Both the position numbers and the translations under genes were made by a program. A stretch of DNA of 64,000 nucleotides. Origin: an uncultured virus (IMG/VR IMGVR_UViG_3300010338_001863). Taxonomy: Duplodnaviria > Heunggongvirae > Uroviricota > Caudoviricetes. The stretch lies in the IMG/VR virus record IMGVR_UViG_3300010338_001863. The stretch is one strand, 5' to 3'. How positions within the stretch are numbered: position 1 is the stretch's first letter; each line of letters opens with the position of its first letter. The notes beneath the pieces are model-generated. The model saw nothing but the letters and a program-made list of their open reading frames with translations, was not told the origin of the DNA and did not search any database. This document shows positions 40,429 to 50,069 of the stretch, piece by piece.

Positions 40429-40857
40429 CTAATTTTTTTTATTGCTGCTTCCAAATCCTTTAGCCCCTCTTTGAGTATTATTATTTACTTTCCCTTCTTT
40501 GATAGGATAATGTTTGAAATCTAATACCAATAATTGTGCTATTTTTTCATTTTTTTTGATATAGATAGTTACACGTGATGTGTTTAAAAGTACTGCAATT
40601 ATTTCTCCTCTATATCCATTATCTATTATCCCTCCCATTACTTTTAACCCATTTGTTCCCAAAGAACTCCTATCTGCTATAATACCGAATGTGCCTTTAG
40701 GTAATCGTACTTTTATCCCGGTTTTTATTCTTACTATATCTCCTGGGTGTATTATAAAATCTTCATAGCAATACAAATCATACCCAACATCCCCTTCGTA
40801 TGCTTTTGTTAATATGTTTGCTTTTTCATTTATTTTTTCAACTATTATGTTTTCCAT
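40429..40857 (-). CDS. dut: trimeric dUTPase
   Basis: GYDL, RSSL, GIID.GYRGE, IAQL, RG.KGFGSS. Confidence 0.95.
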   Translation of the reverse strand: MENIIVEKINEKANILTKAYEGDVGYDLYCYEDFIIHPGDIVRIKTGIKVRLPKGTFGIIADRSSLGTNGLKVMGGIIDNGYRGEIIAVLLNTSRVTIYIKKNEKIAQLLVLDFKHYPIKEGKVNNNTQRGAKGFGSSNKKN

Positions 40858-41005: not shown

Positions 41006-42076
41006 TTACATGGCTAACTTTAGCAAGTTCTTTGCTGCATTTATATCTCTATCATGGATAGCACCACAAATTGAACATTTCCATTGCCTTAATGCTAAAT
41101 TCTTTACTTCAGCATTCTTATATCCACATTCACTGCATATTTGACTTGATGCATAATTTTGTGGTGCTATTATTATTTCTCTTCCATACCAATTAGCTTT
41201 GTATTCTAACATTCTTCTAAATTCTGACCATGATACTTCACTTATTGCTTTTGCTAAATAATGATTTCCTTGCATATTTTTTATCTTCAAATCCTCTAAA
41301 ATTATAACTTGGTTTTCGTATATAATTTTAGAGGATAATTTGTGAAGAAAATCTTTTCTTTGATTTGTAATTCTCTCATGCAATTTTGCCAGTTTTAATC
41401 TTGTTTTTTCATAGTTTTTACTACCTTTTTGTTTCCTTGATAAATCTCTTTGAACCTTCTTTATTCTTTTTTCTGTTTTTCTTAACCACTTTGGATTTTC
41501 TATTTTTATCCCATCTGAAAATATGGCAAATTCTTTTAATCCTAAATCTATTCCAACTTTTTTATCTACTTTTGGTAACTCCTTTATCTCTGTTTCTACT
41601 AATATCGAAGCATAATATTTTTCTGTTGGTGTTTTAGATATTGTTACCGATTTAATAATTCCTTCAAATTGCCTATGTTGTTTTATTTTTATCTTTGTTT
41701 TTAGCTTTGGTATTTTCAAATAACCATTTTCTATATTTACTGTCCCATTTTGATTATTTGTTGTATAGGATTGATATCCTTTTTTCTTCTTGAATTTAGG
41801 AAAACCTATACTTTTATCCCTAAAAAAATTGTTATATGCTTTTTCTAAATTTATTTGTGCATTAGCAAGAGCAAGACTATCTACTTCCTTTAGAAAAGGA
41901 AACTCTTTTTTATACTGTGCAGGTGTGTTTTTAAGCATTTTTCCTGTTTGTTTATAATATTCTATCTTATCAGCAAGCATTTTATTGTAGATAAATCTTA
42001 CACATCCAAATACTTTAGTAAAGTATTCTTCTTGTTCTTTTGTTGGATATATTCTGTATTTATATGCTTTTAGCAA
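41006..42076 (-). mobile_element. tnpB: IS200/IS605-family (IS1341-type) TnpB RNA-guided nuclease
   Basis: [17 protein letters not shown] (RuvC-I), LEDL (RuvC-II), CSECG/CSICG zinc finger, DRDINAA (RuvC-III); TTG start with AGGAGG; no tnpA. Confidence 0.95.
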
Positions 42077-45789: not shown

Positions 45790-46236
45790 AACCTTTTACC
45801 TTAATACATCAGCAAAAGAAAGAATATGTATAAAATTAATAACTTCTGACAAATATATCAGAAAGGAGGAGAAATATATAAGCCAAAATACCCTTTTTAA
45901 ACTAAGTATATCTGTAAGGAAGAATATATAAACTAATAACTTTTAACTAATACATCAGTAAGGAATAGAATTAAAACCAATGAGTTTGGATAATTCACCA
46001 GCAAGGAGGAGAATTAAAACTAATGACTTTTTGGCTAATACATCAGTAAGGAGGGAGATTAGAACTAAGACTTTTGGCTAATACATCAGTAAGGAGGAGA
46101 ATTAAAACTAATGACTTTTTGGCTAATACATCAGTAAGGAGGGGGGATTAGAACTAATGACTTTTGGCTAATACATCAGTAAGGAGGGGGGATTAGAACT
46201 AATGACTTTTGGCTAATACATCAGTAAGGAGGGGGG
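45790..46236. repeat. ~10 tandem ~43-52-bp non-coding repeats (core TAATACATCAGTAAGGAG), iteron-like
   Basis: Core at ~45802, 45851, 45903, 45948, 45991, 46036, 46079, 46124, 46169, 46214; degenerate on the left, near-perfect on the right. Confidence 0.9.
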
Positions 46237-46559
46237 AGGGATAATTCCCCCCATCCCTCCTTTCCTCCTGCCCAAGAGAATAGGCGTGAGTAAAAAAACT
46301 TGGGGGATTGTGGTGTTAGATGCCCTCCTTACTTCCTAACTGATGTTACGTTCCCTCCTGCCTATGTGTGGAAGGTAGTTATCCTTCCAGTACTTCCTGT
46401 ATAGTTAGTGGTATCTAGCTACTTAAGTATCTTTTTTGGGGGGTGAGGGTTGCTAGATACCTCCTACCTGATAGAATGTGTATTTGTTTAATATAAGCAG
46501 GTAGTGGTTGAGATGGATATATGTGGGAGTTATATATTGTTTTAGTTAAGGATTTTTTG

Positions 46560-46748
46560 CTAATCTTTCTTGAAGTAGTGGAACATGTATTTAGAGAATA
46601 GTGGGACTGATACTGTTTGGTTTAATTGGAACTCCTGAAATGAGTAGAAGGACTGGAGTTGGCCTGAATCAGAGTCTTTGAGTACATACATGAACTTATT
46701 TTTGGCTTTTCTTTTGGCGACTATAGTACCTGATACTGAGAAGATCAT
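46560..46748 (-). CDS. small beta-rich hypothetical protein
   Basis: AAGGAGG RBS; ATGA-coupled. Confidence 0.55.
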   Translation of the reverse strand: MIFSVSGTIVAKRKAKNKFMYVLKDSDSGQLQSFYSFQEFQLNQTVSVPLFSKYMFHYFKKD

Positions 46749-46942
46749 AGAACCTCCTTTTTTTGGGAGTCTAACTTGTCGTTGATGACTGATTCTAGGG
46801 TAGAGGAAGCTGAGGATAGGACTGAATTGTAGTATTCTAATAGCTCAGAGATTTCCTTAATTAATTGTGAGCGTTGGGCTTCTGGGATTTTAAGGGAGTT
46901 AATTAAGTCGAACAATCTTTCTACTGAAGGATATTTATCCAT
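46745..46942 (-). CDS. small helical hypothetical protein
   Basis: AGGAGG RBS. Confidence 0.6.
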   Translation of the reverse strand: MDKYPSVERLFDLINSLKIPEAQRSQLIKEISELLEYYNSVLSSASSTLESVINDKLDSQKKEVL

Positions 46943-46968
46943 AATATATACCTCCTATTTTTAAGGTT

Positions 46969-47613
46969 TTAATTTTCTAAGTATTCGTCTATTTTTTGGA
47001 AGATGAGAGAAACTTCTAGGTCTGAGAGGTTGTAGGCGTGGATATATTTCCTCATTTCTTCCGCTATCTTTTGTGGGAGGAGAGGGCTTTCCTTGTCTAA
47101 GTGGTGTATTTTTTGGGCTATTTTCTTAGAGATCAAGTCCAGGAAGATGCTGGTTGCTGTTGCCAGGACATTCACCAAGGTGGAGAATTGGGGTTTGGAG
47201 TAGGCCCTGACTATCTTCTTGTTCAGTTTTATGCAGGACTGCTTATCAGAAATATGGACTGAGATTGTGGCTTCTATCTTCCCCTTCCTCTTCTTGGACA
47301 GGGAGATTGTGGGGAAAGATTTAGTTAGGTTGTAGAAGAGATGTGCGTCAAAAGAAACCTCATCCAAAAACAAATCCTGGACGTCAAGCTTTGAGAGTGA
47401 AGCGGAGAGGGAACTTATGCTGACCAACCAAAAATCTAGAGCATCCAACACCTGGGCCGGAGGAAATCCAACAACATAGAACGTCCTATATATATGCTTA
47501 AACCTGATCGAAACCTTCGTACACTCCATAATAATATTATCTTTTTTTAAAATAAAAATCAGCTTCTTAGCCAAGTTCCGTTCCGTTCTCCAATACCTAC
47601 CAGAATCTACCAT
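46969..47613 (-). pseudogene. 3' part of a gene interrupted by the IS607-derived element (new in-frame ATG supplied by the element end)
   Basis: Removing 47583-48515 fuses 48690-48516 in frame (..AVSR|ERNLAKK..). Confidence 0.7.
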
Positions 47614-47729
47614 GAGATTCTGCGCTTGGTTCCTGCTTCAAAGAGGCTGCCGACGATACTGCTGTTGGTCTTATATCACTCTCCACAGGCGTTCGAGTAT
47701 CAACTCCGGTTTCGGTAGAACTTACCGTA
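47583..47729 (-). ncRNA. IS607-type TnpB omegaRNA-like scaffold
   Basis: CGGTA-AGTTC-TACCG hairpin, GCCTGTGGAGA...GAAGCAGGAA, CAGAATCT-6 nt-AGATTCTG terminal hairpin, AACGG end. Confidence 0.7.
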
Positions 47730-48277
47730 CCATTTCTATATTCAATAACGCGATTATACAACTCTATAAATTCTTGTGGTGTAAGATCGCGCTTTGCGTA
47801 ATTGACTCTTTCGCTCACCCACTCAACGTTGTCAATATCATGTCTCTTTTCGGGAAATCTTGATGTAGGCAAAATGTGGTCGAGATGGCAATTCAACCCA
47901 GGAACAAGTTTCTCACCGGTATAAGGGCAAGTATAATTTTGTGATTCCAACTTATCCTTCAATAGTCTTGCCACTTCCACGGTTCCGGCGCCTAAATTCT
48001 CCGTAGCGATTTCGACATACCAATGCTTTTCACAAAGACGGTTGCTGTGAGGCATTTGAGGATTTGTGCAAAATTTACAAAGACCTCGTGATACTCTATC
48101 ATTGTAACCAGCGATTTGATTTGCTCTGTCTCGTTCCCTGTTATTAGACTTCCATAAATTTGCCTTAGCGTTTACACAATCCTTGCATACGGCCATTGTC
48201 CCATCTTTCCTTCTGGAATTCCTGCCGAACTGCGTTGCGTCAAGAACACGATCACACTTCCTACATATCTTTTTCAT
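47597..48277 (-). CDS. HNH endonuclease with N-terminal zinc fingers
   Basis: CRKC..F....RKDG..VCKDC, CKFC..CEKH, CPYTG..HLDHILP...NVEWV...VNYAK. Confidence 0.85.
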   Translation of the reverse strand: MKKICRKCDRVLDATQFGRNSRRKDGTMAVCKDCVNAKANLWKSNNRERDRANQIAGYNDRVSRGLCKFCTNPQMPHSNRLCEKHWYVEIATENLGAGTVEVARLLKDKLESQNYTCPYTGEKLVPGLNCHLDHILPTSRFPEKRHDIDNVEWVSERVNYAKRDLTPQEFIELYNRVIEYRNGTVSSTETGVDTRTPVESDIRPTAVSSAASLKQEPSAESHGRFW

Positions 48278-48283
48278 GATAAC

Positions 48284-48418
48284 TTACTCCTTTTCCTGCT
48301 TTCGTCTTGCAAGTCCCCAGTTCCAAACAAAGCGAGCAGCGCCAGCGTGTTTCAACAGCGTAGTTCGTTGAGCGTTGTTTGGATCGAGTTCGGCTCGGTA
48401 CGCTCTAAGAATTTCCAT
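48284..48418 (-). pseudogene. tnpB: truncated tnpB (44-aa N-terminal HTH only)
   Basis: Translated by hand: MEILRAYRAELDPNNAQRTTLLKHAGAARFVWNWGLARRKQEKE*; absent from the ORF track because of its size. Confidence 0.8.
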
Positions 48419-48507
48419 CAGCTTTCTGCTTCCTGCGCTCGGCTGAACGCTTACCCCTCGTGGGAATTATACAACTCGTGCAGCAGGTATTCCATGAACA
48501 TCTAAGT

Positions 48508-48690
48508 TCATCGGTCCCTCGACACAGCCGACGAGATTGCGAGAATCATCGTCAAGACTACAATGGCGACGACGAAGGACGCCGCCAGGACCCCGGACGC
48601 AAACGCCCCAAGCCAGCCAGCATCCCAAAAGAACAAGGTTGCCGCCCCACAAATGAACCCTCCAACAAAGCTAAGTATAAAGTTTATCAT
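48508..48690 (-). pseudogene. 5' (transmembrane) part of the interrupted gene
   Basis: Two TM helices, AGGAGG RBS; stop lies just inside the element. Confidence 0.7.
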
Positions 48691-48715
48691 CTCTTCCTCC
48701 TGCGTCTAAAGAAAA

Positions 48716-48744
48716 ATTATACAAAACATTCGCAGATTAGTCAA
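48716..48744 (-). promoter_or_regulatory. sigma70-type promoter
   Basis: TTGACT-17 nt-TATAAT. Confidence 0.7.
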
Positions 48745-48749
48745 GTCTT

Positions 48750-49031
48750 CTACTCAGTTATCCATTTTTTCAGGTTGTCCACAATGTCGGCCGGAAGGTA
48801 TGGGATTGTCGACTTGAGGACTATCTTCAGGTACAACATGTCGTCGTAGGTAAGGAAGATGGAGTTTCTCTTGCTAGCTAGGTATAGACAAACCCCTATC
48901 CTCGCATCCGAAAACTTAGGGTTGCTAAGTCCAGCAGCCCTGATCCTCCTAACCATCCCGCAAGAGCAGACATCCCCTTCCTCATGTGAGTCGTACTCCT
49001 CGTGCATCCTATACTCAACAAACTTATCCAT
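48750..49031 (-). CDS. HxxYxxH-CxC module protein
   Basis: MHEEYDSHEEGDVCSCG. Confidence 0.7.
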   Translation of the reverse strand: MDKFVEYRMHEEYDSHEEGDVCSCGMVRRIRAAGLSNPKFSDARIGVCLYLASKRNSIFLTYDDMLYLKIVLKSTIPYLPADIVDNLKKWITE

Positions 49032-49034
49032 ACA

Positions 49035-49373
49035 TCACCTCTTCTTAAGCGAATCGCCTACTATCTTGATTGTCTCAGATAGCTTGTCTTTCAGCTGGTC
49101 TGGGATGTCTGTCGCCTGCCCGGATAGGCAGTACCTTACTATCCTCAGCGGGATGGAATTGTCGGCTAATGCCAATTTCTGGAAAAACTCGACATACTTA
49201 GTCTGAAAGTATTTGCTTCCCAAGAACATCAACATCCCCGGCAACAGCTCCTCCTTAACTATGCCGACAAAGAAATCCATCCTCATCCCGCAAGAGCATA
49301 TATAATTAGTGTCGTGCGTCCCGTATTGTCCATGTAGCAAATATGCTGTATAGTCATACTTAATTTTATCCAT
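49035..49373 (-). CDS. HxxYxxH-CxC module protein
   Basis: LHGQYGTHDTNYICSCG; AAGGAGG RBS. Confidence 0.7.
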   Translation of the reverse strand: MDKIKYDYTAYLLHGQYGTHDTNYICSCGMRMDFFVGIVKEELLPGMLMFLGSKYFQTKYVEFFQKLALADNSIPLRIVRYCLSGQATDIPDQLKDKLSETIKIVGDSLKKR

Positions 49374-49399
49374 ACATTCCTCCTTGTTTTAAAAAAAAG

Positions 49400-49664
49400 T
49401 TATCCACAGGTTCCACATATCCCCCTTAAGAATCCCCCTAGTATTATTATTAATATAATATATATCTTTCTTTCTTTGGTTACTTTCTTTCTTTCTGTTG
49501 TTGATATGTTGATAAGTCTGTTGATAACTTTTTTTCTGCTTATTTTTTAAGGAGAATTTAGTCATAAAGTTATCCACAAGTTATCCACAGGTTATCAACA
49601 TTATCCACAGGATTTGGTGTTATCAACAGGTTTCAACAAGTTATCCACAGGAGGCTGTGGATAA
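49400..49664. promoter_or_regulatory. DnaA-box cluster
   Basis: TTATCCACA at 49400, 49570, 49581, 49601, 49641; reverse copy at 49656; TTATCAACA variants at 49592, 49620 and reverse at 49507, 49519; AT-rich tract 49441-49470. Confidence 0.8.
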
Positions 49665-49933
49665 GTGTTGTTAGGATTTAGGATGAATTCTTTAGTGGGT
49701 GTAAACTCTCGCTTCTTGTATTTTATATATCTGAGCATGAACTCAGGCATGTCGGTCCCCAGGATCCTAGCTTTATATATGCCTTTGCTTATATTTATTG
49801 AACCGAATGGGGTGGATAGGATACAATCGTTGTCGCAATAGACTATATGACCGTCTACGCGGCCTTTAGATATCGACATGTTGTATGCGAACGGTCTCGG
49901 ATTCTGCTTCCTTTTTGAAGTGATTTTAATCAA
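49601..49933 (-). CDS. paralog of the C-terminal third of 52053-53075 (possibly a fragment)
   Basis: Shared YN.SI..G......C....ILSTPFGSI...KGIYKA...G...P.F...Y..Y....FTPTKE.......YP..PVDN. Confidence 0.55.
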   Translation of the reverse strand: MIKITSKRKQNPRPFAYNMSISKGRVDGHIVYCDNDCILSTPFGSINISKGIYKARILGTDMPEFMLRYIKYKKREFTPTKEFILNPNNTYPQPPVDNLLKPVDNTKSCG

Positions 49934-50069
49934 TGTAATTGGTCCTATCTGGTATTCTGAGTTCTCTAATCCAACATAATCCTTAAATTTATTTATTATG
50001 TGGTCGTCAGTTTCTCATAGTCGGCGAGAAGAGAGAGCAGTACCTGTTCTATCGTGTCTTGATTTCTAT

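Follow-up and report, generated by a model that had tools for sequence, protein, structure and literature searches.

IS607 elements, a group of insertion sequences (IS), recombine at GG and insert beside G-rich sequence, according to the passages of PMC13565253 that deal with them, and the same passages treat restorative homing driven by the nuclease TnpB as established for both IS605 and IS607. The guide RNA of IS607 TnpB, called right-end element RNA (reRNA) or omegaRNA, has RAGATH-18 as its core; the published target-adjacent motifs (TAMs) of IS607 are AGGAG or GAGGG, and in 36% of cases a RAGATH-18 RNA has no TnpB as its neighbour (Ren et al. 2024, PMC11061315, in the sections on these RNAs). 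In this study, a stretch of 64,000 nucleotides of viral DNA (IMG/VR record IMGVR_UViG_3300010338_001863), hereafter called the window, was analysed with regard to an IS607-derived element on its minus strand that carries a gene for an HNH endonuclease. Among the non-autonomous relatives of IS200, IS605 and IS607 elements there are deletion products that keep only their ends and the guide RNA. The element of the window is probably such a non-autonomous deletion derivative, formed from an IS607 element that had earlier gained a free-standing HNH homing-endonuclease cassette; we put the probability of this reading at about 0.65.

The element and its IS607 relatives

The IS-derived parts of the element, and the guide that adjoins them, are the following.

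48405..48455, minus strand: 3' remnant of tnpA, last 16 codons (GKRSAERRKQKADGNS) and stop; the 51 nt are 100% identical to tnpA of the complete copy L001
48284..48418, minus strand: N-terminal stump of TnpB, 44 codons (helix-turn-helix, HTH) and a stop from the HNH cassette; PF12323 (HTH_OrfB_IS605), E 7.5e-17
47597..48277, minus strand: HNH endonuclease gene, 226 aa, with N-terminal Cys4 zinc fingers and a His-Me core; PHROG 1035 and an invariant motif
47583..47731, minus strand: IS607 right end, that is, the omegaRNA (reRNA) scaffold; 99.3% identical over 149 nt to L001 and L002
47726..47714, minus strand: 5' hairpin of the omegaRNA, GGTA-AGTTC-TACC
47689..47630, minus strand: RAGATH-18 core (Rfam RF03064)
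47629..47583, minus strand: 3' flank of the omegaRNA, ending GAGAACGG
47563..47582, minus strand: omegaRNA guide of 20 nt, AACGGAACTTGGCTAAGAAG, in the flank directly 3' of the right end; position and length follow the guide as described in Ren et al. (2024, PMC11061315)

The preliminary description of this locus had proposed an IS607-derived element with a tnpA tail remnant, a 44-aa TnpB HTH whose last codons form a ribosome-binding site (RBS), a zinc-finger/HNH gene whose C-terminus runs through an IS607-type omegaRNA, and a retained omegaRNA with its guide. These identifications were borne out: the tnpA tail, the TnpB HTH and the right end all match full IS607 copies, the HNH gene is intact, and scaffold and guide are kept beside a G-rich TAM-like left flank. 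Its further proposal, that the HNH gene had taken the place of TnpB, did not survive the comparison with related loci described below.

Scanning viral contigs with the HNH protein gave 13 loci. Eleven of them (L002-L012) match only the last 31-44 HNH residues and are ordinary IS607 elements of ~2.1 kb, with a TnpA serine recombinase of 208 aa (NF033518 at 177 bits, cut-off 110) and a TnpB of 379-413 aa; the TnpB of the full relatives has 396-413 aa (NF040570 at 334 bits). L001 contains tnpA, a 397-aa tnpB, the HNH gene at 99% identity and the right end. A metagenome scan added eight loci with HNH at 96-100% identity, and a BLAST comparison with L001 divided them as follows. L022 has all the parts of L001, and L024, L025 and L026 end at contig ends. 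L023 and L027 have no left end and have lost most of tnpA, with the whole of tnpB and HNH retained. In L020 and L021, element and flanks alike are identical to those of the window. Another copy, L045 from a scan of genome contigs, is cut inside tnpB and lies on a phage-like contig. The HNH-bearing copies have eight distinct right flanks among the ten compared, and the HNH-less copies occupy six further sites. TnpB is intact (396-397 aa) in all four HNH-bearing loci with the whole tnpB region, L001, L022, L023 and L027. The HNH gene is therefore an addition to the element and not a replacement of TnpB.

The window aligns to L001 in two blocks, L001 1104-1275 at 97% and L001 2315-3025 at 99.6%, and to judge by this alignment its copy is an L001/L022-type element after two deletions. 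In these parents the order is left end, 65-aa open reading frame (ORF), tnpA, tnpB, HNH cassette, and omegaRNA with right end. The internal deletion, of ~1040 bp compared with L001, removed tnpB from codon 45 to its end together with the cassette promoter. Its junction, CAGGAA/AAGGAG at 48293/48292, joins tnpB codon 44 to the cassette RBS, and the last codons of the 44-aa ORF (AAG GAG TAA) are the RBS of the 226-aa gene. The stump has 96% DNA identity to L001 tnpB codons 1-44; beyond these codons and the tail frame, the TnpB body is absent, and with it the RuvC gene typical of IS607 elements. At the left junction, the flank ...CACGAGG is joined at GG to the tnpA-internal sequence GGTAAGCG. Only the last 16 codons of tnpA are left there, and the serine-recombinase gene, likewise typical of IS607, is missing. 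With TnpA and TnpB absent and a left end that is not recognisable, the element of this phage can no longer move or cut by itself; at most, it would supply the HNH protein and an omegaRNA loadable by TnpB in trans. Further copies of the HTH-HNH-omegaRNA layout at different sites, which the preliminary description had called for, were searched, and the layout turned up at a single site (that of the window, L020 and L021, with identical flanks).

Pattern of the HNH cassette among IS607 copies

In L003-type elements tnpB reads ...ACTACCGAGAGTT-CCTCGGAAAGTTACG-CCTGTGGAG..., in which CCTGTGGAG is the start of RAGATH-18. In the HNH-bearing copies, ...ACTACCGAGAGTT is followed by a consensus-like promoter (TTGACA-17-TATACT), an AAGGAG RBS and the HNH ORF, and then by GGTACGGTAAGTTCTACC...CGAACG-CCTGTGGAG. 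The piece 3' of HNH is a variant of the omegaRNA 5' hairpin, and L002, which is HNH-less, has the identical variant. The cassette occupies a position just 3' of the conserved tnpB end and just 5' of the omegaRNA 5' hairpin, which leaves the RNA scaffold complete. At the insertion point, the HNH frame lacks a stop of its own and reads on through the RNA; the last 31-43 codons of the 226-aa ORF overlap the right end, and their frame is the one that L003-type TnpB keeps open.

At this one precise site, HNH is present in L001, L022 and L023 and absent from L002 and L003. The cassette is 98.7-99.7% identical between copies, on backbones in which the tnpB bodies are 86-88% and tnpA 79% identical. 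In L001, the 56 variable sites lying 700 to 478 nt upstream of the cassette all show the B1 tnpB haplotype; nearer the cassette, L001 has the B2 haplotype of the other HNH-bearing copies at nearly all of the remaining 46 variable sites. The switch is situated ~475 nt away from the cassette, and the tract resembles one left by co-conversion, in copies that are mosaic anyway. Taken together, the pattern is that expected of a homing endonuclease gene, for which cleavage and homing are putative.

The probable course of events is as follows. An IS607 ancestor would have gained the HNH cassette between tnpB and the omegaRNA, before any decay. The HNH protein, presumably guided by its own contacts with DNA rather than by RNA, would cut HNH-less IS607 copies near the DNA of the tnpB C-terminus and the omegaRNA 5' end, and recombinational repair would copy HNH into the cut alleles. 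The gene could spread in two ways, by transposition of its host IS and by its own homing. The window copy then lost the left end and tnpA, its G-rich flank being now joined at an internal GG, and also tnpB codons 45 to the end with the cassette promoter. Protein-guided homing had been one of the options of the preliminary description, and that part is close to the present reading; the target is another matter, since it would likely be the HNH-less IS607 copies and not the empty site of the IS.

The IS607 copies L001, L002, L003, L006, L010 and L022 are mosaics. Two tnpA alleles (79% identical) and two tnpB-body alleles (86-88%) occur in all four combinations, with ends that are 99-100% conserved, and this structure implies frequent recombination between IS607 copies. 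A 65-aa ORF (MKRAMVTRV...) lies between left end and tnpA in L001 (L001:371-568) and also in L002, L003, L006, L010 and L022. It is preceded by a consensus TTGACA-17-TATAAT promoter and a GGAGG RBS, and the 230-nt block that contains it is 98.7-100% identical even where tnpA is just 79% identical. Searches of NCBIfam and PADLOC assigned it to no family.

The HNH protein

A PHROG comparison of the 226-aa protein gave PHROG 1035 ('endonuclease VII') with E 3.8e-28. In an alignment of relatives, the putative catalytic residues D133, H134, N150 and N159 are invariant across 11 sequences. AlphaFold2, run with this 11-sequence alignment, predicted a confident core (predicted local distance difference test, pLDDT, 84-97 for residues 1-183) and a disordered tail (pLDDT 31-34 for residues 187-226). 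Residues 1-183 are thus the folded part and residues 184-226 the read-through into the omegaRNA. Motif and model together mark the protein as an HNH (His-Me finger) endonuclease, with the D-H ... N ... N motif and a predicted beta-beta-alpha-metal fold. The nearest solved folds are the HNH domains of Cas9 and the Gme HNH nickase, with weak resemblance (best E 4.9e-4, template modelling (TM) score 0.45-0.54), and a PDB sequence search returned nothing under E 0.17. PADLOC and NCBIfam likewise gave a weak resemblance to the HNH domains of Cas9 and PtuB; the PADLOC search indicated no defence system.

The HNH ORF is unbroken in all nine full copies compared. In its core, 113 synonymous sites show 5 changes and 436 non-synonymous sites show 6 (dN/dS ~0.3), small numbers that are consistent with mild purifying selection. 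In the window, the private changes are three non-synonymous and one synonymous, and C174Y and A158V fall at columns conserved in the family.

These data bear on the idea that the phage has taken over the HNH gene, for example for the exclusion of co-infecting phages or for DNA processing, the IS remains being irrelevant. Phage HNH genes with such roles are well known. The ORF is intact though tnpA and tnpB are gone, and phage promoters upstream could drive its expression by way of the 44-codon stump. The 3:1 excess of private non-synonymous changes, with conserved columns among them, argues the other way, as do the loss of the cassette's own promoter and the failure to find a conserved phage lineage with the insert beyond the identical L020 and L021. 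We regard such a takeover as highly improbable.

HNH relatives at other TnpB loci

Distant HNH relatives (27-54% identity) were found at 17 metagenome loci and two genome loci. A TnpB profile scan of 27 distant, related and genome loci (L013-L019 and L028-L047) was positive in 6/27 (L036, L037, L038, L045 and L046, the last with two TnpBs). An Rfam scan found RAGATH-18 in none of the 17 distant metagenome loci, so the TnpBs of the distant loci belong to other clades.

HNH relatives are located at the boundary of tnpB and omegaRNA in at least four other TnpB lineages, from cyanobacteria and soil bacteria, in either orientation. In L036/L037/L062, L061 and L038, tnpB is followed by HNH and then by a right-end motif, the orientation of HNH being variable. 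In L038 all three run in one direction, and in L036/L037 and L046 HNH is antisense between the tnpB 3' end and the right end; counted by lineage, the orientation is sense in two and antisense in three. In L046, from a metagenome-assembled genome (MAG) of Nostoc, HNH separates tnpB from its right end. This genome has another copy of the element, at 86% identity, in which 42 nt occupy the position of the 657 nt with HNH, and 165 nt of right end come next. The Nostoc contigs C86 and C68 are thereby an independent filled/empty pair. HNH was found in 3 of 401 genomes of the phylum of Nostoc, and all three abut the tnpB 3' end and converge on it. All lineages have the insert just 5' of a conserved stretch, ...ACGC(C/T)TGT..., at which the omegaRNA scaffold begins; this stretch may be the recognition region of the HNH protein.

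A library of 1.8 billion proteins contains 910 clusters of this large family at E <= 1e-10. The two best full-length matches, P0020 and P0002 (45-48% identity), end in VESDI and TPVESG, which is the translated 5' strand of RAGATH-18, and P0011, with an Endonuclease_7-type core, has the same tail. To judge by these protein tails alone, the genes of P0002, P0020 and P0011 would lie directly 5' of RAGATH-18. Relatives of P0011 and P0002 in viral contigs were only distant, TnpB-less loci.

The recurrence of this position could also mean that HNH is a useful cargo or a partner in an obligate mobile element guided activity (OMEGA) system, kept by selection on the IS as a second nuclease that aids TnpB-omegaRNA or attacks competing elements. 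HNH lineages at 40-48% identity (the window group, P0002, P0020 and P0011) would all be directly 5' of RAGATH-18, the same position recurs in the other TnpB lineages named above, TnpB is intact alongside HNH, the cassette promoter would drive the omegaRNA too, and the nuclease core is nearest to HNH domains of the Cas9 type. This last likeness is weak (E 5e-4, TM 0.45), however, and Cas9 structures dominate the PDB; moreover, the orientation is sense in two lineages and antisense in three, one cyanobacterial copy has an in-frame TGA, and most family members are not beside TnpB. On balance, we consider selected cargo quite improbable. A stricter form, in which the HNH clade is a dedicated companion of TnpB-omegaRNA transposons and acts with the RuvC nuclease or its RNA as a two-gene RuvC + HNH OMEGA element, appears very doubtful; if it were true, it would offer a living picture of HNH capture between IsrB and IscB/Cas9.

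Some observations were made beside these. L061 (G069:C7:145479-145856), a cyanobacterial HNH convergent with tnpB, is the copy with the in-frame TGA and looks like a decaying copy. A repeat of ~50 nt lies just upstream of the second tnpB of L046 (L046:2686-2736) and occurs at more than 30 sites in the Nostoc genome G001 with 81-100% identity; this probably represents either the terminus of a different IS or a small family of repeats. The best match in the representative library, P0019 (437 aa), is a tandem HNH duplication with two matched stretches.

Right end, omegaRNA and guide

The right end ...GGTAGGTATTGGAGAACGG terminates in GG. Homology stops at 47583 in 21 of 21 related loci with a right end, and beyond it the right flanks of these 21 loci and the window are unrelated. 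The RAGATH-18 match extends to the conserved 5' and 3' strands, with a shorter apical part. In the 5' hairpin the AGUUC loop is preserved and the stem has compensatory changes, both sides being changed in two of seven sequences at six pairs. One private U-to-C in the window RNA breaks an A-U pair in the apical stem; the four other runs that contain this part have the family base. A fold of the single sequence was no stabler than its shuffles (z -0.57) and is uninformative. A group I intron or IStron was considered and rejected, there being no intron family match at the locus.

The preliminary description had offered, as its second option, a new RNA-guided nuclease system made of HNH, the 44-aa TnpB HTH and the omegaRNA. 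The three parts are indeed adjacent, the HNH frame runs through the RNA, and P0002, P0020 and P0011 use the same frame. The stump is, however, a deletion product present at one site, the RNA-encoded tail is predicted to be disordered and merely follows the frame kept open by L003-type TnpB, and the window copy has private changes that look damaging. HNH is antisense to the RNA in three lineages, so its co-translation or co-transcription with the RNA is not required. HNH and a guide RNA in the same orientation, without TnpB and at many sites, as expected of an effector, were not observed. We give this option almost no credence.

The omegaRNA of the window could still be loaded by TnpB in trans, which leads to another explanation: the mini element would be a working non-autonomous element, with HNH as a passenger. 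An IS607 TnpB supplied in trans, by the host or by a co-infecting phage, would, with the omegaRNA of the element, cut insert-less phage genomes at a G-rich TAM followed by AACGGAACTTGGCTAAGAAG, and the insert would be copied in. The scaffold shares 99.3% identity with the one in intact copies and has an equal Rfam score, the guide and the G-rich TAM-like left flank are in place, intact TnpB copies of the family are common in similar samples, and there is the precedent of restorative homing by TnpB in IS605/IS607 (PMC13565253, in its passages on these elements). Against this, the 64-kb window contains no IS607-type TnpB, and its sole TnpB is 41% identical and has another right end. The private U-to-C breaks a stem pair, no empty-site allele was found in viral contigs or in the four runs, and the layout is confined to one site. 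This explanation seems unlikely.

Several points weigh against the reading that we prefer, a decayed IS607 copy with a homing cassette. The HNH ORF of the window is still whole, so that decay is unproven. All HNH lineages at 45-48% identity seem to precede RAGATH-18, a persistence that fits useful cargo equally. Ordinary recombination between copies could yield both the conserved cassette and the tract in L001 without any nuclease drive, and the putative homing target is deduced solely from the borders of the insertions. Most members of the HNH family have ~180 aa and no tail, with only 5 of the 150 best alignments passing residue 190, and L034, L039 and L041, with at least 1 kb of flank on both sides, are without TnpB. 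The match of the protein to Pfam HNH_4 (19.6 bits) is under the cut-off of 22. Finally, the covariance-model check suggested in the preliminary description gave RAGATH-18 at 47689..47630 with 28.8 bits (E 0.013), under the gathering score of 44.9; this low score need not be a sign of decay, because intact IS607 copies of the same family score likewise, 29.3-30.3 bits in nine of ten loci scanned.

Left flank and phage setting

The surroundings of the element contain the following features.

48456..48515, minus strand: 60-bp spacer, its origin uncertain, that separates the IS-derived DNA from the phage ORF upstream
48510..48508, minus strand: stop codon of the 60-aa ORF, inside the spacer
48511..48494, minus strand: hairpin ATGAAC/GTTCAT, inside the spacer
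48473..48466, minus strand: extended -10-like TGTATAAT, inside the spacer
48508..48690, minus strand: phage ORF upstream of the element, 60 aa and hydrophobic; it has a promoter-like site of its own at 48744..48716
46969..47529, minus strand: downstream phage gene, 186 aa, of unknown function; its homologues P0017/P0018 start MECTKV/MDCVKV

The IS-derived DNA covers 48455..47583 (minus strand), 873 bp, or possibly 933 bp if the 60-bp spacer is included. The spacer ends CACGAGG and, with the GG at 48455..48454, makes up the G-rich TAM-like flank; in every junction seen, that of the window included, the left flank ends AAGGG, TAGGG, AGGGG or GAGGG. The hairpin and TGTATAAT in the spacer had been taken for the left end of the element. 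Local alignment of the spacer to the family left end gave a score of 16, with the 8-mer GGGACCGA as best match, and this score was reached by 331 of 2000 shuffles and by 527 of 1968 window tiles. The likeness is thus at chance level, and by this alignment the family left end is not recognisable at 48515..48456. No other locus or run examined has these 60 bp adjoining the IS, and an exact 27-mer of the spacer was absent from the viral contigs searched. We think that the 60 bp are phage intergenic DNA. A tblastn match of TnpA reaching into the spacer (48509..48408) was rejected, as only 3 of 18 residues are identical upstream of 48455.

Removal of 933 bp, which in the preliminary description restores an in-frame gene, does leave an open frame of 262 codons, but it restores no gene: MECTKV, at ATG 47529, is where the downstream gene's homologues (78% and 59% identity) start. 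For the same reason, the element is placed in intergenic DNA upstream of the 186-aa gene and would lie outside it. With a spacer of 53 nt, one of three frames is open, and the 262-codon frame is therefore an accident of modest improbability.

Three independent 5'-truncated copies (window 48456/48455; L023:~1718/L027:~964; L045:~2752) are joined in the same manner, with a flank that ends (A/G)GGG and is followed at once by the sequence behind an internal GG of tnpA or tnpB. The junctions read TTAAGGG/AACTGG in L023/L027 and GTTAGGG/CTCTGAATTG in L045, which suggests that the truncations may be recombinase-type events at internal GG pseudo-sites. L023 and L027 have the same left flank and the same truncated element with unrelated right flanks, a pattern that points to rearrangement or to recombination between IS copies in related phages. 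The contig of L045, from a MAG labelled Methanotrichaceae, encodes a 908-aa tail-fibre-like protein beside the truncated IS607::HNH; it looks like phage DNA, which leaves two options, an archaeal provirus or virus from that host, or an artefact of binning.

Structural proteins, a DnaB-like helicase and a DNA helicase are among the PHROG matches of the window, which is phage DNA. A megablast of 46000-50000 gave zero matches in the phage collection, which is without a near relative. Viral contigs, searched with the protein and by alignment, contained no empty-site allele and no relative of the host gene. When contigs of other runs were aligned to the window, those of four runs (X4, X19-X21) contained the IS-derived part 48455..47583 without flanks. 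They showed no joint across the element, the flanks being uncovered, and such gaps in cover carry no weight. Contigs of other runs end exactly at 48293 and at 48455. Contigs from RNA libraries cover HNH and the right end, which is no proof of transcription. The runs with HNH and the right-end part are chiefly sludge, digester and bioreactor metagenomes from many studies.

No other IS607 copy or IS607-type TnpB was found in the 64-kb window. Its only full TnpB is a stand-alone protein of 356 aa at 42076..41006 (minus strand; PF12323, PF01385 and PF07282), with 41% identity to the IS607-family TnpB, a different right end, a low G+C as in the phage, and no adjoining tnpA. Downstream of it, a hairpin-rich stretch that resembles a right end extends to ~40880 and ends ...GGGGTAGTTCACC; the region around this TnpB matched no Rfam family. 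The adjoining ORF 40857..40429 (minus strand) is presumably dUTPase-like, by its sequence (GYDLY..., RSS motifs).

Comparison with known systems

The recurrent insertion of HNH at the boundary of tnpB and omegaRNA is the worthwhile result of this analysis, and the element of the window is itself a relic. In the literature consulted, including passages of PMC13565253, PMC11061315 and PMC6293099, no free-standing HNH nested in a TnpB element was described; the word HNH has 0 occurrences in the main text of Ren et al. (2024, PMC11061315), whose supplementary neighbour tables lie outside this scope and might list some. If the HNH protein is a homing endonuclease aimed at the DNA where the omegaRNA starts, it would be a parasite of a parasite, and OMEGA elements would host nested selfish genes. 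For annotation, RAGATH-18 RNAs without an adjoining TnpB may partly be HNH-invaded or decayed copies. The locus also provides a natural case in which an HNH nuclease gene came to lie within an RNA-guided RuvC locus. It offers nothing directly usable for genome editing, unless the HNH protein proves to have a long, well-defined target.

With the IS607 elements described by Ren et al. (2024, PMC11061315, in the sections on their RNA and targets), the window copy shares the GG-ended right end, the RAGATH-18 core with its 5' and 3' flanking motifs, the 20-nt flank-derived guide and the G-rich TAM-like left flank. It differs from them in having no tnpA, no tnpB body and no recognisable left end, and both it and its parents differ by the extra HNH gene between tnpB and the reRNA. 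With the deletion-derived non-autonomous relatives of IS200, IS605 and IS607 it has in common the loss of the transposase and nuclease genes and the keeping of right end and guide; unlike them, it carries an intact passenger nuclease gene and has no demonstrable left end.

As in free-standing HNH or endonuclease VII-like homing genes (PHROG 1035; HNH_4), the cassette consists of a small zinc-finger and His-Me nuclease gene with its own promoter and RBS. It also resembles phage homing genes in its presence or absence at one site, its near-identity on diverged hosts and the one donor-type tract, but here the host is the boundary of a mobile element (tnpB/omegaRNA of IS607 and of IS605-like elements) and the ORF enters a structured RNA. 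IStrons, in which a group I intron is combined with an IS605 or IS607 TnpB (PMC13565253, in its passages on IStrons; see also PMC10690162), are likewise composites of an OMEGA transposon and a second selfish element and likewise use the DNA around the RNA-coding end of the transposon; in the present case, the second element is a protein-coding homing cassette and not a ribozyme, and no splicing is involved. Finally, the locus shares with IscB and Cas9 the association of a Cas9-like (HNH_4) HNH with an omegaRNA-guided RuvC nuclease, but the HNH is here a separate gene and not a domain, its orientation is variable, and the loci compared give no sign that it would use the RNA.

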